Both the position numbers and the translations under genes were made by a program. This document shows positions 11,411 through 42,327 of a DNA stretch of 51,676 bases, in pieces (position 1 is the first letter of the stretch; every line of letters begins with the position of its first letter). The notes under the pieces are model-generated. The model did not search any database. It was not told where the DNA came from and was given only the letters and a program-made list of their open reading frames with translations. The DNA comes from a phage, in sequence record PZ534514.1; one strand, given 5' to 3'.

Positions 11411-11419
11411 GCTTTTTCA

Positions 11420-11455
11420 CCTTTTGTGCTATTTGATTTGTTGAATTATACGGGC
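11420..11455 (-). promoter_or_regulatory. Possible promoter upstream of J-like gene
   Basis: Minus strand reads TATAAT...AAATAGCAC...AAAAGGTGA ATG, following a hairpin and T9 run. Confidence 0.35.
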
Positions 11456-11490
11456 AAAAAAAAAGCCGCGCAACGCGCGACTCTTTTATA

Positions 11491-13560: not shown

Positions 13561-13621
13561 AATTGCACCTCCTTTCGTACATTGTATCATCAATAAAAAA
13601 GCCGCACAAAGGCGGCTTGAG

Positions 13622-13978: not shown

Positions 13979-16647
13979 CCCCGCTTAGACATAACAAATT
14001 CGTAAACTTCCCCACCCTGCGTACAGGAACGCTTAATCATATCAGTGAAAATCATTTTTACGCCAGTCTCCAACCCTTTTGGATCGTTTCCGTTGTTAAT
14101 ATCAACGCTGATCCCGCCAATATTAAGATTTGTTGCTCCATATGAAACTCCGCCGCCAGTGTATGAAGTGCCGCCAACAACGCCGCCATTTGCATAACCG
14201 CGCATCATTTTGTAAAGATTTCCAACTCCGATCCGCTTCGTTGCCTCCTTCGTCATGACAAACTCGCCTTTATGGACAACACCTGCTGGCTCATACTTCC
14301 CGCCGTCGCCAGTGTATCCACCAGTTGCAAATCCAACATTTTTAAGAAGGCTTCCAATCGTCCAAGTGTCACCGCCAATCGCACCAGATATGGCATTAAA
14401 GATAACCATTTTTGTGATCATCTGGATAATCATTTGGATGATTGACGTTGCGAAGCTCTTAAAGTTCGCCTTGCCTGTTGCAAGGAATGTAGCCATTTGG
14501 TTGGTTAGACCGTTGAGCGCCTCGCTTGCAATATCTTGCACGTTTCCGTACATATCCATTGCATCTTGCCCGTAAACCTCCCAAGCGTTTTTTGCTCCTG
14601 CAATCCAGTTATTTCTAAGCTGATCTTCAGTGGCGTAATACTCCTTCAGTTTTGCTTCCATCTGCTGATAAATTTCATCGTCGATACTACCGCCGCCAGC
14701 AACATAATCAGTTCGCAACTTCTTCAACTCAAGCTCTCTCTGGATTTGCAGATCTGTAGCTCCAGACTGTCGCAAGTTCATAGCGTCAATAGCATCCGAT
14801 GTTTGCTGAATGAATTTTAGCCCGTCCTGGTATTGCTTGTTCTTTCTCTGTTGCAAAACAATCTGATCGCCTATCTCGGCCTTTTCTTTTGCCATAGCAA
14901 GAACTGTTTTTTGCTCGTTTAGTAACGCCTGTTCCGCTCTTGTCAGCTTGCGCTTGCTTTGCGCTTCCTCCAGGATTTGGATCTGCTTTTCAATACTCCA
15001 CAAAGATTGCCTCTGGCGTGAAATAACATCATTTACAGTCCTGTGCTCTTTTAGTGTTTCAAGTTGCGCCTTGAGAACATATAGCTCCTTATCAAGCTGC
15101 TCTGTTGGTGCTTTTACAACTCCACCAACTTTCTCCTTTTGCTGCTGCGCCTTCTTCGCTTCTTCAAGCTCTTTTCGCCTGAACTCCACGTTCTCAGCCG
15201 CGCGCTTTTTCAACTCTTCGTCTGCTGTCCTTGCTACGTTCTTCTGATCTTCTATGGCTTTGTTTAAAGCCTCTTGCGCCGCTCGAACTCTGTTTAAGGA
15301 AAGGTTTTCTCTGTCGATGCGTGCTGCTCGTTCCGCCATATCCTTATTCGCATCTTTTACGATCTTTCCTATATCCTCATAGGTGTTTTTCGCAAATTGC
15401 AGCATTGGATTCACATAACCAAGCTCTTTCCCCAACAGCCCGCCGGACGGTGAAGCATAATCACGTTTTGCTTTTAAGACCGCATACCATGAATCGCCAA
15501 GCTCAAGAACTTTGTTTTTGTGATCAGCAATTTCATTGTTAAGACTTACAAAACTTGATGCGTTTTTGTATTCGTTTACTTTTGCCTTTGCTTCGTCATA
15601 AGTAAATCCAACATCGACGAGTTTTTGTATGGCCTCGGTTGCTCCATCCTTAGTGCTTATGTAAGCCTTTGCGATATTGTCGGCGCTCTCTCCTGTCTTG
15701 TCAGATAGCGCCTGGATTCCAGTTGCGATCCGCTCTGCAAACTCACCGGAAAGACCTGTTGCCTCCTGAACGGTTTTTGTGATCTCCTTCAATTGTGCAT
15801 TTGCTTTGTATGCATTATATGCAGCATAACCAAGAGCACCAGTCAGCGCCGTCATTCCTACACTTAAAGGCGTGACAAATGTCATTAGCGCTTTAAACGT
15901 ATTAGCAACACCGCCGAATGAGTCCTTGATTTGCCCCCCCTGCTGGATTGCAATCATCCATACTGGCATACCTGAAGCAAGAGAAGTAACAACGTCAGTG
16001 ATCTGCATTGGCAATTGCGCCATTGCTTGCTTGTACTGCCCCATAGAAACGCCAAGTTTTGAGGCTTGTTTTTCCTGTTCCTTCATTTTTGCAATAAATG
16101 GCGCAGCCTCTGCACTAACTCCAAGTTGTGCGGCTCTCATTTCGACAAGCTCTGATTTTGTTTTTTCCGCTGCGTCAGCTTGCGCCTGCAATGCCGCAAT
16201 AAACTTTCTTGCCTCAGCCTCTGCCCTTGCCTTGTTTTTTGCTTCCTCAAGCGCCGCGCGGCCTTCTTCAGTTAGCGCCTTTTTAGTTGCGATCAGTTTG
16301 TTTTGCTGCGTCTCAAGAATTGATCCTAACTCAAAGAATGTATCATCCGGCACAATTCCTTTTTTCCAAAGCGCATCAAGCTGTGTCGCAGCCTGGCGCA
16401 ACTTATCCATTTTGCTTGCTGTCGGATCTATTGCCGACTGAATTGCTTTAAATTCTTGCTTCTGCTTTGCCAATTCCTCAGCCAGTTGTTTGGCTCTTTG
16501 TCTTGCAACAACCTCTGAATCAACAAAACTCTCAACGCTTCCCTTTGCATCGTCGTTTGCCTTTTTGAATTGCTGCAAAGACTTTACAGCATTGTTGAGT
16601 TGAGAAACATCAACCCCAAGCGTCAAGCCTGCGTATTGTTCTGACAT
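13975..16647 (-). CDS. Tail tape measure protein
   Basis: 890 aa, long Ala/Lys/Glu/Gln coiled-coil region, Gly-rich C-terminus, between G/G-T and M. Confidence 0.9.
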
Positions 16648-16686
16648 TATTAATCCTCCAGGTAATAAAAAAGCGCCCGTAGGCGC

Positions 16687-17007
16687 TTATTTTGAATGCA
16701 TCATTTCAAGTGCTTTTTGCTCCATGATTCGCAAGTCGTTTAGCGCCATCTCGCGATCCTCAACCTTGTAAATCTCAAAAAGCATAGGCAAGACGTTATA
16801 ATCAAATCCGTAAGCGCCACCGCCTGAACATCTCCATTGCGTTTGCATTGCGCAAAATATATCCCATGATTGCATCATGCTTTCATCAAATATAACCTCT
16901 GGCGGATCTTCTCCTTCATAGTCTGCCCTTGTAAGGCCAACAGCCTCAAGCTCTGCATCTGTCGGCGGTTTCTGATAAAACAGGTAAACCGCCCTTTTTA
17001 GTTTTTT
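16687..17007 (-). CDS. T-frame extension of tail assembly chaperone G-T, reached by -1 frameshift
   Basis: The -1 frame is open from the slippery heptamer at 17001-17007 to the stop at 16687-16689. Confidence 0.7.
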   Translation of the reverse strand, partial: KKLKRAVYLFYQKPPTDAELEAVGLTRADYEGEDPPEVIFDESMMQSWDIFCAMQTQWRCSGGGAYGFDYNVLPMLFEIYKVEDREMALNDLRIMEQKALEMMHSK

Positions 17008-17315
17008 ACTCGCTGCCCCGCAAGCGCTTTCATGTATGCGCTAGTTAATCCGATTGCTGTTGCTGGGTAGTAATCAAGAAGCTGTTTAATATTTTCTTCG
17101 TTAAATTCATCATCAAGATTCCAACCGGAAGCAAGGAAGGTGATCATTTCAACATCGCTCATTGGAGTATCTGACGTGTAGCGCTCGTGAATCTCACTTG
17201 TTTTGCGGTGGCGAACTGTGAAGATAATTGTTTGATCTTCTCCGTTAGGCATTGCAAATTTCACTGGTAATTTAAAGTCAGGAAGCGGCCCAATCGTCAA
17301 TTTCATTTTTGACAT
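16998..17315 (-). CDS. Tail assembly chaperone G
   Basis: 105 aa between major tail and tape measure genes; RBS aaggag; ends ...GQRVKN with the slippery site in its last codons. Confidence 0.8.
   Translation of the reverse strand: MSKMKLTIGPLPDFKLPVKFAMPNGEDQTIIFTVRHRKTSEIHERYTSDTPMSDVEMITFLASGWNLDDEFNEENIKQLLDYYPATAIGLTSAYMKALAGQRVKN
17001..17007 (-). other. Programmed -1 frameshift slippery heptamer A AAA AAC
   Basis: Minus strand GTA AAA AAC TAA; X XXY YYZ site immediately before the G stop. Confidence 0.7.
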
Positions 17316-17327
17316 TTCTTTCTCCTT

Positions 17328-17371
17328 GATAGCACTTTTTGTTAAAAGAATTGATTATGAATCGTGTATCA
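17328..17371 (+). promoter_or_regulatory. Promoter-like motif, antisense to the tail operon
   Basis: gatagcactttttgttaaaag, 22 bp, tatcat on the + strand, directly upstream of the hairpin at 17394-17410. Confidence 0.3.
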
Positions 17372-17385
17372 TGATTGTACAGTAA

Positions 17386-17412
17386 CAAAAAAAGGGGCGC
17401 AACGCCCCTTGT
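17386..17412 (-). terminator. Terminator after major tail gene
   Basis: Hairpin ggggcg-ttg-cgcccc followed by T7 on the minus strand. Confidence 0.7.
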
Positions 17413-17414
17413 TA

Positions 17415-18077
17415 TTACTCTACTTGAGAAGGTAGAAAGGTGAATCGACCTTTCAGTGATACAGAAAGGGAAACAGTTTCCATTTCGTTAACTGTGGTCT
17501 GCGGGATTTCGTTAAACGAAAGTACACCAGCCCAGCAACGCATCTCTTTTGCTTTTGGTACATACATGCGAAGAGCGGTTACTTCGCCTGATTCATCTGC
17601 TGCACGAAGTAACGGATAGATCGCATTATCGTATTCGTGCGCAAAAGTGTAGGTAAGAGAAACGGCGCTCTTATAGGTAGGTAACTGCTGTTCCTGATCG
17701 TCTGCCAAACACTGATAGGTGTAGTATTGCTGTTCTCCGCCGTCCTGCGACAAATCCTGAACGCAAGGGATCTCAGTCCATGCATCAATTTTGGCAAAAG
17801 ATGCAGTGCCGCCAGACGGGAAAACGTTCTGATCAGTAGTATCTACGCCTTCAAGAGTTACGCTTGTTTCTTCACCGTTAGTCTTTACACGCATAACGCG
17901 ATCAATCAACTTACCCCAAGAAGACGCAGTGATGATAACATAATCACCTTTCTTGTACGCAGTGCCGCCAGATGCAACGGTGAATACAGGATCTTTAGCG
18001 TTTGACACTGCCGTTGCCTCAATAGCGCTTCCGCGATTGCTCTCAACGAAAATTTGCGATCCATTTGGTAAATGCAT
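17415..18077 (-). CDS. Major tail protein
   Basis: 220 aa with strong RBS aaaggag, followed by a strong terminator, immediately upstream of G/G-T. Confidence 0.75.
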   Translation of the reverse strand: MHLPNGSQIFVESNRGSAIEATAVSNAKDPVFTVASGGTAYKKGDYVIITASSWGKLIDRVMRVKTNGEETSVTLEGVDTTDQNVFPSGGTASFAKIDAWTEIPCVQDLSQDGGEQQYYTYQCLADDQEQQLPTYKSAVSLTYTFAHEYDNAIYPLLRAADESGEVTALRMYVPKAKEMRCWAGVLSFNEIPQTTVNEMETVSLSVSLKGRFTFLPSQVE

Positions 18078-18082
18078 AATTT

Positions 18083-18481
18083 TTACTCCTTTGTTTCAAT
18101 TCGAACATAAAACCTTATTGGGAGAATCCAACCGCTTTCACTCTTTAGCGGCTTGTGAACTCTTGCACCCTCATATATATAACCATGCTCCAGCATTTTA
18201 CCATCGTAAAAGAATTGCGCAATCTCTTTAGCGAGAACGCGCGGCCTGTCAGTTCCGTAACCTGGTGGAAACACAATGCCAACCTGAATCATTCCGATAT
18301 AAGAAACGCATTTTCGATCCAATGACAAGTATTCTGTGTCAACTTCGGCATAGTCAAACTTCAACCACGGCGAACCGTCACCAGGTGGCGTAAACTCTAC
18401 GTTTTCATAAGCGATCATGAGTCTGCTTTCGTATTCAGTCGCCAGCGCCTTACGCGCCGATAGCATTAATTCATAGTGCAT
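18083..18481 (-). CDS. Tail terminator / tail completion protein (by position)
   Basis: 132-aa ORF between connector genes and major tail gene; RBS gaggg. Confidence 0.5.
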   Translation of the reverse strand: MHYELMLSARKALATEYESRLMIAYENVEFTPPGDGSPWLKFDYAEVDTEYLSLDRKCVSYIGMIQVGIVFPPGYGTDRPRVLAKEIAQFFYDGKMLEHGYIYEGARVHKPLKSESGWILPIRFYVRIETKE

Positions 18482-18914
18482 TTTTAGCCCTCGACTCTTT
18501 TATTGCTTCAGCCATATAAGATCTCAACTTAACCGCCACAATCCCAAGAACACCCGCTGGAGCTTGTTTTGAATGACCGTACTCAAGCGCGTTAGCATAA
18601 ATAAGCATGTTAGAAAAATAAATGGCTCTTACTGCGCCGCCACCTCGTAATATTGCGTATATGGCGCGCTTGCCTTCCGCGATCGTTTTGTCGCCGTGCT
18701 TATCGTACTGGTTAAGCGCATACAATGGCGGCTTATTTGCTGTTACCTGCCAGTTTCCACGGTAACGACCAGTATCTACCGGAGAACGCTTAACCAAATC
18801 TGTGTGTACTTTTTCGGCGAACAACTCCACGCAATCTTTTAGTCCACTATCAACGGCGTTTATCCACGCATCAATGTTGCCGTGAAATTCCCTTATCGTG
18901 TAGTTTTTAGCCAT
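18471..18914 (-). CDS. Head-tail joining protein (HK97 gp10-like)
   Basis: 147 aa with TGRYRGNW motif; position in the neck module. Confidence 0.55.
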   Translation of the reverse strand: MAKNYTIREFHGNIDAWINAVDSGLKDCVELFAEKVHTDLVKRSPVDTGRYRGNWQVTANKPPLYALNQYDKHGDKTIAEGKRAIYAILRGGGAVRAIYFSNMLIYANALEYGHSKQAPAGVLGIVAVKLRSYMAEAIKESRAKNAL

Positions 18915-19278
18915 GTACAGAAATCCTTCTCAAAATAGGCCGATAAGCAACAGTGACATTGGTTTGTCTGATTGGTCTTGCTTCAACTACAACATATAAT
19001 TCACCATCAACATCAATATGATACCCATTCTTAATTTCAACTTTATTGTTAAAAACTCCCAACTTATCGGTTACTCGTATTGTCTCGCCGTCAACCTCTC
19101 GGACTTTGGGTGATCTAATTAAACCCTTAATCATTACACTAACCTCTGGCTTTTCTACTTCTTCGCCTCCGATGATTTCAACGCTTCCACGCTGCGTTAT
19201 GCACTTAAACTCACCGTTGCTATCACTAAAGAAGTTAATTCCTTCGGTTGCCATTCTTGCGATCTCGTTATAGTTCAT
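18907..19278 (-). CDS. Head closure / head-tail adaptor protein
   Basis: 123-aa ORF with overlapping stop and start in the neck module. Confidence 0.5.
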
Positions 19279-21042: not shown

Positions 21043-21125
21043 TTTCTTCCTCCATATATAAAGGCTGTTAGTATGTAACGCCACAATGATAGCATTTTTT
21101 GTTAAACGTGCAACATAATTTTGTG

Positions 21126-29578: not shown

Positions 29579-29624
29579 ACTTTAACAAATGCCCTCGCGG
29601 AAGTTTTAACAAAAAGTGCTATTA
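29579..29624 (-). promoter_or_regulatory. Promoter-like element, conserved motif family
   Basis: Minus strand TAATAGCACTTTTTGTTAAAAC, 22 bp, TAAAGT, then leader and ATG at 29546. Confidence 0.5.
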
Positions 29625-29909
29625 GCTCATATAATAAATTTCATCTCGCACAAAATCGTCAAAATCAGATTGCGTTAATAGTCGATCCTCTAATGCTGCC
29701 TGCTCAATCATTTCAACCAGGGCGCAATCCATATCAAGATAATGCGCATCAAAATCATACCATGACGCCATTTCGCGCGCCCAGGAGCGACAATTCTTGA
29801 ATCCGTAACGTCGGATACAGTTTGCTGTGTGAAATGAGTCATTCCAACCACGCTCAAGCGCTGCCTTTTCGAATGCGTTAATCAACATTTTACGATTGCT
29901 TTTAGCCAT
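29622..29909 (-). CDS. Hypothetical protein
   Basis: 95-aa ORF with strong RBS aaaaggagg. Confidence 0.6.
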   Translation of the reverse strand: MAKSNRKMLINAFEKAALERGWNDSFHTANCIRRYGFKNCRSWAREMASWYDFDAHYLDMDCALVEMIEQAALEDRLLTQSDFDDFVRDEIYYMS

Positions 29910-34852: not shown

Positions 34853-34884
34853 TTTGTTTTCCTCAATCTCGTTTCGATGAGGCT

Positions 34885-34930
34885 ATTATGCCAGGATTTG
34901 CACCTGGCGTTTTAACAAAAAGTGCTATTT
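34885..34930 (-). promoter_or_regulatory. Promoter-like element, conserved motif family
   Basis: Minus strand AAATAGCACTTTTTGTTAAAAC, hairpin gccagg/cctggc in spacer, CATAAT. Confidence 0.55.
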
Positions 34931-35185
34931 AATATCTGTTGTGACTTGTTGGTGCATTACGTTTTTGCCGCTCCGGTATGTGCTATCCGTTGCGCCATTA
35001 CAATTGGTGTAATAGATTGCTCGACCGTTGTCATAGAATCGGTACGCGGTGCATCCATCAACAGTAAACAGGCGACCGACTTTAAAATCTGACTCCACGC
35101 CTACGACTACCGTTGATTCAGATGCCTTTTCGCATCCGGTCAGGGTAGCAATTGCAATCAAAACTCCAATTAATGCCTTATTCAT
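34925..35185 (-). CDS. Small lipoprotein (second lipoprotein gene)
   Basis: Signal peptide with lipobox LTGC; 86 aa; second gene of the leftward early operon. Confidence 0.7.
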   Translation of the reverse strand: MNKALIGVLIAIATLTGCEKASESTVVVGVESDFKVGRLFTVDGCTAYRFYDNGRAIYYTNCNGATDSTYRSGKNVMHQQVTTDIK

Positions 35186-35655
35186 TATTCATCCCCCACC
35201 TTTACCATCTCGTTGAGCATTTCATTCATTCGCTCAAGTGCGATTGCCGCACCCTCCAGGCGCTCACCTTCCAGATCACTGATTCGCGGCTGTGTTTTCA
35301 GTAGTTGAGCAATAAACTTTGCTCGCCACTTGATTTCAAGTTTCGCTATATCATCCCCAGTCAGAACGCGAGGTTTGCTTTTGGCTTCAGTGAGCGCAAA
35401 CACAAAGCCATCACCCTCATCAGTCACCTTTCGCTTAATGCTGATCACGCCTTTTTGCTTCACTTCAGGTACGCGGTTGACAACCTGGCGCATGTACGAT
35501 GCCGTAATTGCTTCGCCGTTCTCCACATTAGCGCACAAAAAAAGCGCTGGCATGAATACATTATTACGCTCACCACTACCAATTGCCGCGCCCAGGTCGC
35601 GAAGCATATCGCAGAACTCACTACGCGACATAGAACTAACATTTTCTTCATTCAT
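35185..35655 (-). CDS. Hypothetical early protein (first gene of leftward early operon)
   Basis: 156 aa, RBS aaggag, next to the divergent control region. Confidence 0.65.
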   Translation of the reverse strand: MNEENVSSMSRSEFCDMLRDLGAAIGSGERNNVFMPALFLCANVENGEAITASYMRQVVNRVPEVKQKGVISIKRKVTDEGDGFVFALTEAKSKPRVLTGDDIAKLEIKWRAKFIAQLLKTQPRISDLEGERLEGAAIALERMNEMLNEMVKVGDE

Positions 35656-35829
35656 GGCGTCTACTCCTTTTGTTGCGTTTAAACTGGCTGCATTATTGCC
35701 TTGCCCTTCCTACATGTCAATGTATTTTTGTGTTTTGATAACAATTTTTGGCGCATGGCGTGTTTAAAGATAACAAAATGCTTCAGTTAAGCCATTGGTT
35801 TTTCTGTTAAAAATGACCTTGTTGACTTG

Positions 35830-36308: not shown

Positions 36309-36354
36309 AAATAGCACTTTTTGTTAAAACTGAATTGTCCTGATCGGGTACATT
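36309..36354 (+). promoter_or_regulatory. Promoter-like element, conserved motif family
   Basis: aaatagcactttttgttaaaac, 22 bp, tacatt, leader acatcgaaacga, RBS aggag, ATG at 36393. Confidence 0.55.
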
Positions 36355-36392
36355 AGACACATCGAAACGAGATACCCATCAGGAGAAAGCAA

Positions 36393-37448: not shown

Positions 37449-37492
37449 ATAGCACTTTTTGTTAAAACTCAATCCTCGCAATCCGATATATT
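37447..37492 (+). promoter_or_regulatory. Promoter-like element, conserved motif family
   Basis: aaatagcactttttgttaaaac, 22 bp, tatatt; palindrome cctcgca/tgcgagg spans the -10; leader catcgacaacgaa. Confidence 0.55.
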
Positions 37493-37525
37493 ACACACAT
37501 CGACAACGAATGCGAGGATTTGAAA

Positions 37526-38020: not shown

Positions 38021-38215
38021 ATGGAAACACAGGTTGATGTTAAAGTTGTACAGCGTGACACCACTCACGAGAAAGGAATCTTTAAGAAAGGCACTATCAT
38101 CACCATTGATCTTGAGGATATGGTTGCGTATCACTCCGGCCTGACATGGAACGTTGTTAAACATGGCAATGCTTTCAAACTGTGTGGATTCAATACTTTT
38201 ATGGAGGTTGTGTAA
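38021..38215 (+). CDS. Hypothetical protein
   Basis: 64-aa ORF, RBS gaggatt. Confidence 0.55.
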   Translation: METQVDVKVVQRDTTHEKGIFKKGTIITIDLEDMVAYHSGLTWNVVKHGNAFKLCGFNTFMEVV

Positions 38216-39288: not shown

Positions 39289-39999
39289 ATGTATAAAGGT
39301 TTAATATTCTCTTTGTTTGATGGATCTGGTAAGGCCGTTAAAGATTGGGCTGATGCTGGATATAAATGCATTTGCTTTAATGCTGACGGTGGCGATCACG
39401 GTGATTACCAGTCAGTGCGCATAATCCATGACAATATCTTTTACGTTAACGTGTGGATTGATGATCTATTCAAATATACCGCAAAACTTGAAAATTGGGG
39501 TAAGCCTGATTTTATTATGGCGTTCCCTCCATGCACTGACCTTGCAAATAGCGGATCTCGCCATTGGGCTAAAAAACGCATTGAGAATCCATCGTTCCAG
39601 GATGAAGCCGCCAACACTTGCAAAATAGCGGCGCAAATTGCTGATTATTTCGGTGTTCCGTACATGATAGAGAATCCTGTAGGCAAGCTGTCAACGCTAT
39701 GGCGCAAGCCTGATTATACGTTCCATCCGTGCGATTATGCTGGCTATCTGCCGGAAGATGATAAACATCCCGACTTTCCTGATATTATTCCGGCGCGGGA
39801 TCGGTACTTTAAGAAAACATGCCTTTGGACTGGAAACGGATTTGTTATTCCTCCGCGCGCAACAATCATTCCTAAAGATGGCGACAAGGATAATCCAGGT
39901 TGGGCCAAAACTGGCGGAAAATCATCTCGCACAAAGATGATCCGCTCCCTCACTCCGCGCGGTTTTGCTCGCGCAGTCTTTGAAGCAAACGCAAAATAG
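39289..39999 (+). CDS. Putative DNA cytosine-C5 methyltransferase-like protein (tentative)
   Basis: Motif I-like FSLFDGSG, PC-motif-like AFPPCTDLANSG, ENV-like MIENPVG; RBS gaggtga; only 236 aa. Confidence 0.5.
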   Translation: MYKGLIFSLFDGSGKAVKDWADAGYKCICFNADGGDHGDYQSVRIIHDNIFYVNVWIDDLFKYTAKLENWGKPDFIMAFPPCTDLANSGSRHWAKKRIENPSFQDEAANTCKIAAQIADYFGVPYMIENPVGKLSTLWRKPDYTFHPCDYAGYLPEDDKHPDFPDIIPARDRYFKKTCLWTGNGFVIPPRATIIPKDGDKDNPGWAKTGGKSSRTKMIRSLTPRGFARAVFEANAK

Positions 40000-40039
40000 C
40001 ACTTTTTGTTAAAAGCCAGGTGTAAAAGCCTGGCATAAT
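39993..40039 (+). promoter_or_regulatory. Promoter-like element, conserved motif family
   Basis: aaaatagcactttttgttaaaag, hairpin gccagg/cctggc in spacer, cataat. Confidence 0.55.
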
Positions 40040-40743: not shown

Positions 40744-42327
40744 ATGAATTTTTCGTTTGAAACCAATAAACTAACACCAAAACAAATTATCGAATTAGCT
40801 GATGCACAAGGATTGTCTCCGGTGCGCGTGTCCATTCAGGCAAACGGATACCGTCAATCGTCCAGCTTTTGGGGTGAGGTTAATGATGTTAATAACGGAA
40901 ACGATCGCTACCCTGTAATTTCTCTTGGCAATGATGTTGATGTTGTTGGAAAGTTGGCGCGCAACATTGCTCGATCTGTTCAATTCCCTGAATCATCGGC
41001 ATATATGCATTTTATCGGATGTGTGTCTGCTGCAATGCTTGGACGCTTCACTGTTGAGTATCACGGAACGGATCAGCCGACCGCTCTTTATGTTGTTACA
41101 AGCCAGCCTCCTTCAACTGGTAAATCTGCCGTTAACAGCCTGGCACTTGCTCCAATGGTTGCGGAAGTGGAAAGAATTAACGATCAGCGAAAGAAGGAAA
41201 GAAAAAAGATTCAGGCAAAGTTGGCAGGTCTTACAAAAGAGATGAAAAGCGAGCGCTCCGGCGCTGATATGGAATCTCTGTACCAGGAGAAAGAAGATCT
41301 GGAAGAAAAACTGGAAAAGATGTGTGACATCGTTTTCCCTGTGTCCGACACAACGCCGGAAGGACTTGCAAGAATCAACAATCGCCAGGGTAACTTTGCT
41401 GTGATTTCAGACGAGGCAACGAGTATTAACAGCCTTTTAGGTCTGACATATGCCAATAGCGAACGTAAAACCAACAGCGAACTTGTGCTGAAAGCATGGG
41501 ATCATGGTCATGTTTCTATAGCTCGTGCAAACGCTGACAACAATATGAGTTTTAAAGCTCTTGGCTGTATGGCGGTAATTGCCCAGGATGAAACAATCAA
41601 TGCCATCATGGATGCAGGATCGCGCGGTATCGGTGTAAGTGAGCGTTATTTGCTTGTGCGTGAGGAATCATTTTTAGGTCGTCGAAAGTTTGTTGATGAT
41701 AACGGTGATTCGACTTATGAGCCTGTTGATGGAGAACTGAAAAGTCAATATTTTAAGCTGATCCATAACATCATGAGTGAATCAAACATCCAGCTTAAGA
41801 TCAGCAAATCAGCAATGCGAGTTCTTAACATGGCTCGTCAGGAGATGGAGCCGCACCTTGCTGATGGAGGAAAGTATTCGCATACAATGCTGCGCGGTGC
41901 GCTTGGAAAAATGGATAAGCAGGTGATCAGGATTGCTTCGGTTTTGCACACTATCCGCAATTGGTTTAATCCTGGCGGATACCCTCAAAAGTCGAAAGAG
42001 ATTGAGGTTGAAACCGTTCAGGAAGCATTGCTGATGTTTAGCGAGTTGAGCAAAACATACATTAGCGCCGCCAACGCTTCTGGCTACGCTGGTGATGATG
42101 CTGAAATGGGTAAACTAATCGAGATCATCACTCGACACGGCAAGGCTAATAAGGGAATCTTGAATGTTCGCGCCATATATGAGGCTGCACGAAAAGTTAA
42201 GCCGTTTGTTGGTCAGGCTGGCGTAATGAAGCGCATGGAAACGCAACTGCTTCCGATGCTTGAGGAAAGAAATTATATTTGTGTGATTAATGGCGTTGTT
42301 TTCGTAAATCCAACATTGCTGGGGTAA
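40744..42327 (+). CDS. P-loop NTPase-like early protein of unknown function (527 aa)
   Basis: RBS aaaggag; Walker A-like SQPPSTGKSAV; charged coiled-coil segment after it. Confidence 0.7.
   Translation: MNFSFETNKLTPKQIIELADAQGLSPVRVSIQANGYRQSSSFWGEVNDVNNGNDRYPVISLGNDVDVVGKLARNIARSVQFPESSAYMHFIGCVSAAMLGRFTVEYHGTDQPTALYVVTSQPPSTGKSAVNSLALAPMVAEVERINDQRKKERKKIQAKLAGLTKEMKSERSGADMESLYQEKEDLEEKLEKMCDIVFPVSDTTPEGLARINNRQGNFAVISDEATSINSLLGLTYANSERKTNSELVLKAWDHGHVSIARANADNNMSFKALGCMAVIAQDETINAIMDAGSRGIGVSERYLLVREESFLGRRKFVDDNGDSTYEPVDGELKSQYFKLIHNIMSESNIQLKISKSAMRVLNMARQEMEPHLADGGKYSHTMLRGALGKMDKQVIRIASVLHTIRNWFNPGGYPQKSKEIEVETVQEALLMFSELSKTYISAANASGYAGDDAEMGKLIEIITRHGKANKGILNVRAIYEAARKVKPFVGQAGVMKRMETQLLPMLEERNYICVINGVVFVNPTLLG

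Follow-up and report, generated by a model that had tools for sequence, protein, structure and literature searches.

A copy of a repeated motif in the tail operon of a T1-like phage runs against the direction of the operon and appears to form part of a complete promoter, placed head-on against the sense promoter of the tail chaperone gene G. We give a probability of about 0.45 to the reading that this is an activator-dependent, class II-type antisense promoter that would occlude the tail-assembly promoter of G. The motif itself matches the E. coli marbox, to which MarA, SoxS and Rob, monomeric activators of the AraC family, bind, and the element at 17329-17372 reads as a full member of the early promoter family of this phage.

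The window, the whole stretch of 51,676 nucleotides that was analysed, comes from a siphophage of the T1-like group, in the family Drexlerviridae. Over positions 17150-17560 (411 bases compared) it is 100% identical to Escherichia phage KarlJaspers (genus Hanrivervirus, BASEL collection), and Shigella phage pSf-1, phage Henu8 and related phages share 97-98% identity with it across 16000-19000. The major tail gene lies upstream of G in the operon and its stop codon is at 17415-17417. The features discussed below are collected in Table 1.

Table 1. Positions of promoter, terminator and gene features in the window (in T1 where stated)
Feature	Position	Strand	Sequence, basis or remark
Tail chaperone gene G	ORF 16998-17315; with Shine-Dalgarno 16998-17327	-	KarlJaspers annotation: tape measure chaperone
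Shine-Dalgarno of G	17322-17327	-	AAGGAG; sequence
Marbox-like 20-mer, predicted activator-binding half	17329-17348	+	ATAGCACTTTTTGTTAAAAG; consensus match, conservation
Spacer, 18 nt, without -35 hexamer	17349-17366	+	length conserved, sequence variable
Antisense -10 hexamer	17367-17372	+	TATCAT; TAnnnT in 9/9 phages
Predicted antisense transcript start	17379-17381	+	inferred from -10 geometry; micF start 8 nt past -10
Predicted sense start for G	17366-17368	-	geometry; inside antisense -10 hexamer
Sense -10	17374-17379	-	TACAAT; 17 nt from TTGCGC, one base from antisense -10
Sense -35-like hexamer	17397-17402	-	TTGCGC; in loop and 3′ arm of terminator
Terminator hairpin	17392-17410	both	AAGGGGCG-CAA-CGCCCCTT; scores terminator-like on each strand
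Major tail protein gene	17415-18077	-	KarlJaspers annotation
Terminator-embedded promoters	11440-11480, 13575-13620, 17374-17410	-	11.45 kb: TTGCGC-17-TATAAT
Capsid gene sense promoter	TTGCAC 21108-21113, TATCAT 21086-21091	-	16-nt spacing; conserved
Second inverted marbox, equal to capsid promoter spacer	21089-21108	+	exact ChIP-motif match 21092-21106
Regulator promoter of nose-to-nose pair	49286-49313	+	TTGAGT-16-TATAAT; faces helicase-gene marbox promoter
Helicase-gene marbox promoter	box 49351-49332, -10 49314-49309	-	-10s of the pair overlap head-on
Sole annotated putative transcriptional regulator	49365-49838	+	Cro/YdaS helix-turn-helix Pfam matches below threshold
CATCGA(A/C)AACGA, examples	36350-36362, 37488-37500		downstream of early promoters
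CATCGA(A/C)AACGA, example	34868-34880	-	downstream of early promoter
GC-rich inverted repeats	34890-34908, 45769-45787, 46789-46807, 40016-40033		early promoter spacers
GC-rich inverted repeats in T1	39996-40013, 41976-41993

Two facing promoters between the major tail gene and G

The sequence-only reading had noticed a + strand motif copy inside the minus-strand tail operon, and this stands: GATAGCACTTTTTGTTAAAAG lies at 17328-17348 with TATCAT at 17367-17372, both between the major tail gene and G and facing the terminator hairpin. The copy has two mismatches to the 21-mer consensus of the window, both at its outer ends, and the G at 17328 falls outside the 20-nt box. The 22 bp given earlier between motif and hexamer is correct as the gap from TTGTTA (17339-17344) to TATCAT; counted from the end of the motif, the distance is 18 nt. 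TTGTTA was rejected as the -35 of the antisense promoter, a 22-nt gap to the -10 being too long. The -35 position reads AAAGA(A) and holds no recognisable -35. GCAC is distal and AAA proximal to the -10, which is the forward box orientation, and the box is centred at -40.5 to -41.5 if the predicted start lies 7-8 nt after the -10.

The major tail-G intergenic region was gathered from 19 related phages, of which 18 were scored for the sense promoter and 17 were typed; BHUENT9 (L018) was left out of the analysis. Nine regions of about 100-115 nt carry the motif (type A): those of the window, Warwickvirus (tonnikala, Jahat), Changchunvirus (W011D), Tunavirus (T1, JMPW1), Sertoctavirus (BrunoManser) and two IMG/VR contigs. 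This makes five named genera, with 2 of the 9 members being unclassified contigs. Eight regions of 67-106 nt have no motif (type B), namely those of Tlsvirus Sazh, Henuseptimavirus, Hicfunavirus, Kyungwonvirus, Sauletekiovirus, Eclunavirus and two Klebsiella phages. The two most distant contigs (L009, L010) also lack it. The whole module is all-or-none between the nine type A and eight type B phages, and since eight relatives do without it, it is dispensable.

Where the module is present, its parts are kept to different degrees. Among the nine type A phages the 20-mer box is 90% identical. All nine have a spacer of exactly 18 nt, whose mean identity is just 47%. The antisense -10 varies (TATCAT, TAGATT, TAGAGT, TAAGAT, TAGGAT, TACGAT, TATATT, TACAGT) at positions 3-5, while positions 1, 2 and 6 are invariant in 9/9 phages; the background of TAnnnT in the window is 0.013 per position. 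This T,A,T-invariant pattern is the signature that selection on a sigma-70 -10 element would leave. TGn lies just upstream of the -10 in seven of the nine. T1 has an identical 21-mer between flanking genes that are about 66% identical. Since box, spacing and -10 are all kept, this is no stray motif but a complete promoter that has been maintained. The TTGA-like bases before the antisense -10 are conserved in type A alone, so they belong to the antisense and not to the sense promoter.

The candidate sense promoter of G occurs in both types. TTGCnn-16/17 nt-TAnAAT stands on the sense strand, directly after the major-tail terminator, in 17 of the 18 phages scored. At its -10, ATTnTA does not vary among type A phages, and type B phages have TAnAAT or TATAAT. 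Conservation of the sense -35 could partly be a side effect of the terminator, because this hexamer is weak and coincides with a common terminator loop. A minus-strand promoter called by a prediction tool (TGTACA-16-CATAAT) is not conserved in the relatives, and TTGCGC-17-TACAAT was preferred to it.

In the window, the junction of the two -10 elements reads TATCAT-G-ATTGTA. The abutment is kept in 8 of the 9 type A phages, and the exception, Jahat, has a 4-nt deletion that leaves both hexamers intact. Each predicted start lies inside the -10 of the other promoter, and the polymerase footprints overlap in silico. With the -10s one base apart and the starts so placed, two polymerases therefore cannot occupy the site together. 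Read in reverse complement, the box becomes about +19 to +38 of the G leader, which in the sense direction has no fold better than shuffled sequence (z 0.2).

The coupling of terminator and promoter seen here recurs as a design of the late operon: the terminator loop supplies a TTGnnn -35, followed by 17 nt and TAnAAT. At such sites, transcription is thus halted and begun anew within about 40 nt. The design fits the 'transcripton' idea cited for T1 in the re-annotation of phage TLS (PMC11447400).

On the minus strand the hairpin has a folding energy of -13.4 kcal/mol and the tail TTTTTTTGTT, and is predicted to terminate the major tail transcript. A + strand 47-mer containing the hairpin folds at -16.2 kcal/mol (z -4.4) and ends in TTGTTATT, with T at 6/8 positions. 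The earlier statement that the motif copy points into a terminator thus holds for the window phage but does not extend to T1, JMPW1 and BrunoManser, whose tails are poor: the + strand U-tract is 5-6/8 in three relatives and 2-3/8 in those three phages and in L008. Because the box, the 18 nt and TAnnnT are kept in 9/9 phages, a + strand RNA of about 35-40 nt is a fair prediction for the window phage. On the major tail mRNA, this RNA (about 17379-17417) would overlap the 3′ UTR and terminator alone, and it would cover no coding or ribosome-binding sequence of any target mRNA. It is probably a by-product and not the purpose of the promoter, because the terminator in the antisense direction is not conserved in the relatives. 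The conserved feature is the head-on abutment with the sense promoter of G, not an RNA product.

The motif as a probable marbox and its distribution in the genome

Two published descriptions of the marbox were used, the consensus AYnGCACnnWnnRYYAAAY(n) (PMC3709825, PMC2064960) and the ChIP-derived MarA motif GCAHWWWWTGYYAAA (PMC6900184). At no more than one mismatch, the consensus finds 21 sites in the window against 1.33 expected from shuffles, and recovers essentially all motif copies; the one at 49822 alone is missed, with two mismatches. The ChIP-derived motif has 15 exact sites, including 17332-17346 and 21092-21106, and 20 sites at up to one mismatch against 2.82 expected. T1 has 11 exact sites and 22 at up to one mismatch, and T7 has none at either setting. 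The focal box fits the consensus at 18 of 19 positions, with one mismatch, and the ChIP-derived motif at all 15 of 15. Where the marbox is degenerate, the motif is variable; these are the positions by which the TLS paper separates its A, T and G groups.

The geometry is that of a known host promoter. The marRAB marbox of K-12 is ATGCCACGTTTTGCTAAATC on the reverse strand, and E. coli micF (NC_000913.3) has ACAGCACTGAATGTCAAAAC, 18 nt, TAGAAT, 7 nt and the +1; the spacing from box through 18 nt to the -10 in the phage promoters is identical to that of micF. In class II promoters of the MarA family, the marbox is in forward orientation, overlapping the -35, with its centre near -41 (PMC12052159, PMC10268841, PMC8811837, PMC6900184), and they have no recognisable -35 (PMC10268841). 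Promoters of this class, such as micF, and the phage element agree in consensus, forward orientation, absent -35, centre near -41 and 18-nt gap. Unlike its putative host counterparts, the phage element is found on a virulent genome at about 20 copies per 50 kb, and the phage boxes are far closer to one another than the degenerate host boxes are.

A phmmer search with E. coli MarA over the six-frame ORFs of the window and T1 found no phage-encoded MarA-like protein (best E-value 1.8). Because the motif matches the marbox, has the geometry of micF and lies on a phage without a MarA homologue, the binder is most likely a host MarA-family activator, that is Rob, MarA or SoxS. Cells that are not under stress contain little MarA and SoxS, and most of their Rob is inactive. 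That T1 grows well under such conditions speaks against a host activator as the binder.

Other readers of the motif were tried and rejected. The sigma-54 consensus is TGGCAC-N5-TTGC, with its GG and GC elements; the motif reads TAGCAC-N3-TTG(C/T), which lacks the GG and falls 2 bp short of the required spacing. An UP element does not fit, as the bases that never vary form no A/T tracts and a T tract is missing from the GAA-type copies. The consensuses of Fis, IHF, CRP and LexA do not fit the motif either.

The window holds 14 motif copies at up to three mismatches against 0.01 expected from shuffles, and about 17-21 by looser patterns. Most lie in the early regions at 29.6-49.8 kb, where downstream of a box, and in its direction, come a -10-like hexamer (17-18 nt away), a conserved leader of the CATCGAAACGA type, a Shine-Dalgarno sequence and the start codon. 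Across the window, nAnnnT occurs 17-18 nt downstream of 17 of 21 box-like sites, most of which then have a Shine-Dalgarno sequence and ATG in the same direction. Such an arrangement marks the motif copies as a promoter family, and this family would drive nearly every early transcription unit of the phage. A regular member of the family would stand about 76 nt upstream of a start codon and be oriented with transcription. The focal copy does not fit this: it is antisense to both neighbour genes and has no CATCGAAACGA-type leader.

The repeat has been described before. A 2024 re-annotation of phage TLS lists a 21-nt direct repeat, aaATAGCACnnnTTGnTAAAA, in 18 intergenic copies, said to occur also in T1, Rtp and Rogue1 (PMC11447400). 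Its authors suggested roles as stoperator, enhancer or UP element, stated that the repeats follow the 'direction of transcription', and reported no phage polymerase or sigma factor and three canonical promoters only (PMC11447400). Their table includes a minus-strand copy, DR7, within the plus-strand late operon at the capsid site (PMC11447400). These repeats are the same motif as in the window, likewise intergenic and at about 18-21 copies per genome. The tail/G copy is missing from the TLS list, and TLS-type phages lack it. The fixed -10 spacing, the marbox match and the inverted copies inside late promoters are not in the TLS paper and are added here.

Several further features accompany the early promoters. 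In most early transcripts CATCGA(A/C)AACGA is conserved around +5 to +17, where it presumably works in the leader RNA; the focal copy lacks it. A GC-rich inverted repeat lies within the 18-nt spacer or brackets the -10 of many early promoters, and is likewise missing from the focal copy. On the opposite strand the hairpin of the early spacers is followed by GTTTTAAC, and it may stop antisense or read-through transcripts. When the box is reversed, TTAACA forms a near-consensus -35; for the copy at 29603 this is followed 18 nt on by TATAAT (29606-29635, +), with a score of 11/12. This could be a divergent promoter, maybe by chance. A near-consensus host promoter without a box, TTGACA-17-AATAAT at 35692-35720 (-), drives the ORF of a DUF7174 protein (35185-35655, -). 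It is among the very few canonical promoters of the early regions and is a candidate for an immediate-early unit; Pfam and PHROGs gave only domains of unknown function for the early proteins downstream of it. For a small early protein (38021-38212, +), the Pfam match is PF25180 at E 4.5e-37 ('phage antiviral trigger protein Gp54').

Three of the copies within the structural region, itself on the minus strand, are + strand copies, at 6507, 17328 and 21088. The first is a perfect-consensus marbox promoter (6508-6527, +) that drives an ORF for a 75-aa lipoprotein (6582-6809, +) with a lipid attachment signal, which could be of the superinfection-exclusion type.

The third is a second inverted copy, at the capsid gene. 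The capsid -35 box and the inverted marbox occur together in eight phages, type B included. The -35 reads TTGCAC, TTGACG, TTGACC or TTGATT, and a -10 (TATCAT, TATTAT or TATGAT, about 16 nt on) is readable in seven; the Phc extract ends at TA. In reverse complement the marbox makes up the capsid spacer and the first bases of the -10, with GTGCTAT doubling as TGnTAT. This box has no consistent antisense -10 (TATGCG, TATACA, TATTAG, TATGGT, TATTGG). A hairpin with a T-run lies at the start of the capsid leader (21080-21061). MarA and SoxS repress E. coli pbpG from a marbox over the promoter spacer (PMC12052159). As in such core-promoter repression of pbpG and rob, the capsid box fills the sense spacer, and the focal box lies just downstream of the sense start. 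The focal box differs from the pbpG case in having a -10 of its own, and any repression by it would involve a recruited polymerase rather than just the activator.

Boxes also occur near other promoters. An imperfect sense-oriented box, ATAGCACAAAAGGTGAAAAA (11413-11432, -), lies across the site where ribosomes would bind for the J-like tail tip gene, immediately after the terminator-embedded promoter TTGCGC-17-TATAAT (about 11445-11473). It is conserved in T1 (25021) and TLS (DR8), with varying half-site spacing. T1 has a similar box upstream of its small terminase gene (8362). At 49.3 kb, two promoters stand nose to nose in front of the regulator and helicase genes (Table 1) in a layout that looks autoregulatory for the regulator; P57 and DR11 are the TLS equivalents of this pair.

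Proposed mechanism and alternatives

Occlusion of the G promoter by the antisense promoter could proceed as follows. A bound activator would recruit RNA polymerase to the antisense promoter, and this polymerase would exclude another from the sense promoter of G. The antisense complex would also block read-through from the major tail gene, keeping the tail-assembly genes low, and its own transcript would run into the bidirectional terminator after about 35-40 nt. Once activator occupancy dropped, the sense promoter would be freed and the chaperone, tape-measure and distal tail genes could restart. Such a drop might, speculatively, come from titration, with hundreds of replicated genomes each carrying about 20 boxes.

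The distribution of the boxes suggests that they would act positively at early and negatively at late promoters. A wider proposal follows the same lines, and we hold it more tentatively than occlusion at G. About 20 promoters per genome would be wired to host MarA, SoxS or Rob, with forward marboxes turning early and middle genes on and inverted ones keeping late genes off (capsid, G and possibly the tail-tip ribosome-binding site). Titration would then make the early-late switch, and infection would be coupled to host stress.

The same architecture may have another reader, either a phage factor such as the Cro/YdaS-like regulator (Table 1) or RNA polymerase alone through an UP-like contact. 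We regard this as possible though doubtful, somewhat less likely than a host-wired programme. A partial dyad in the motif, TAGCA-N5-TG(C/T)TA, would suit a dimeric helix-turn-helix protein, but it is imperfect in most copies. The regulator gene adjoins a box in an autoregulation-like layout, and an early phage factor could come from the canonical promoter at 35720-35692; the Pfam matches of the regulator, however, are below threshold. An UP-element or enhancer role was proposed by the TLS authors (PMC11447400), but the most conserved positions (ATAGCAC ... TTGYTAAA) are base-specific and not A/T tracts. Conserved and degenerate positions moreover coincide with those of the marbox, including the TG unique to the ChIP-derived motif.

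The sequence-only reading had set a very short antisense RNA against a protein-binding site that is no promoter. It is partly supported, but the opposition did not survive: the motif looks like a binding site and a promoter at once, which suggests that the two readings are not mutually exclusive. Taken alone, each is unlikely, and we rank them equally, well below a different reader.

In the first, a short cis-antisense RNA would base-pair to the major tail mRNA at its 3′ end, or to read-through transcripts, and so set how much major tail protein is made relative to the downstream tail proteins. The complete promoter, followed by a hairpin that scores as a + strand terminator, would make such an RNA, fully complementary to the major-tail terminator region, and in T1-type relatives with a weak tail transcription would read into the major tail coding region. 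Its length and sequence, however, are not conserved (U-tract from 6/8 to 2-3/8), the overlap in the window is limited to a structured 3′ UTR, and position relative to the sense promoter is the sole feature kept everywhere.

In the second, the motif would be an operator or roadblock at +19 to +38 of G, with no antisense transcription needed. The capsid copy, inside the sense-promoter spacer and without a conserved antisense -10, supports this binding-site half of the earlier idea, as do the box-like element over the tail-tip ribosome-binding site and the repression that MarA-family proteins exert within core promoters (PMC12052159). A pure operator does not account for a focal -10 at exactly 18 nt with the T,A,T signature in 9/9 phages and TGn in 7/9. 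Type B phages, moreover, have no box and other bases downstream of the sense -10, and a monomer bound 20-40 bp past the start would by itself be a weak roadblock.

Three remaining ideas are together very improbable: a primer or origin promoter (compare the T4 middle-mode origins), for which a short transcript next to an A-rich tract would be suitable, but near 17.4 kb there is no GC-skew inflection, the skew following gene direction only; a remnant of module exchange, in line with boxes at module boundaries but not with the strong selective conservation of DNA-level promoter features; and a translation enhancer in the G leader, where the box in the sense RNA is an A/U-rich stretch upstream of the Shine-Dalgarno sequence, against which stand the lack of a stable leader fold and the type B phages that translate G without a box. 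A small + strand gene at 17440-17619 (59 aa) was also rejected as the target of the promoter: the frame is equally open (same length or end) in type B phages, which have no such promoter, and is thus a by-product of the conserved sense frame. An Rfam search of 16900-17700 gave only sub-threshold chance matches.

Relation to known systems and significance

Interference between face-to-face promoters is known from coliphage 186 (pR/pL) and IS10 (pIN/pOUT). The focal pair is like these in having two promoters that would fire at each other, one of them conditional. It differs in that its starts are only about 13 bp apart, so that open complexes would be mutually exclusive and there would be essentially no RNA overlap. 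Lambda OOP is an antisense RNA that overlaps a coding region and acts by RNA pairing. The predicted focal transcript resembles it as a short antisense RNA in a phage operon, with a terminator shared with the sense strand; unlike OOP, it would overlap a 3′ UTR hairpin, and its product is not conserved.

The motif family is known, while its identity as a marbox and its head-on placement against late promoters appear to be new. A literature search, of incomplete coverage, found no published link between marboxes and phages, no match for the motif string, and no start-site or transcriptome data for any T1-like phage or member of the Drexlerviridae.

Should the marbox reading fail, the focal element would still be a natural pair of mutually exclusive head-on promoters fused to a terminator. 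If the repeat is a marbox, the temporal transcription programme of T1-like phages becomes testable with purified MarA, SoxS and Rob and with mutants, and the inducers salicylate, paraquat and bile salts could be used on it. The backward copies would then offer the first hint of what restrains the late genes. Infection would be coupled to antibiotic, oxidative or bile stress of the host, a link that would bear on combining phages with antibiotics. The success of these very common enterobacterial phages would be tied to the multidrug-resistance regulators of their hosts.
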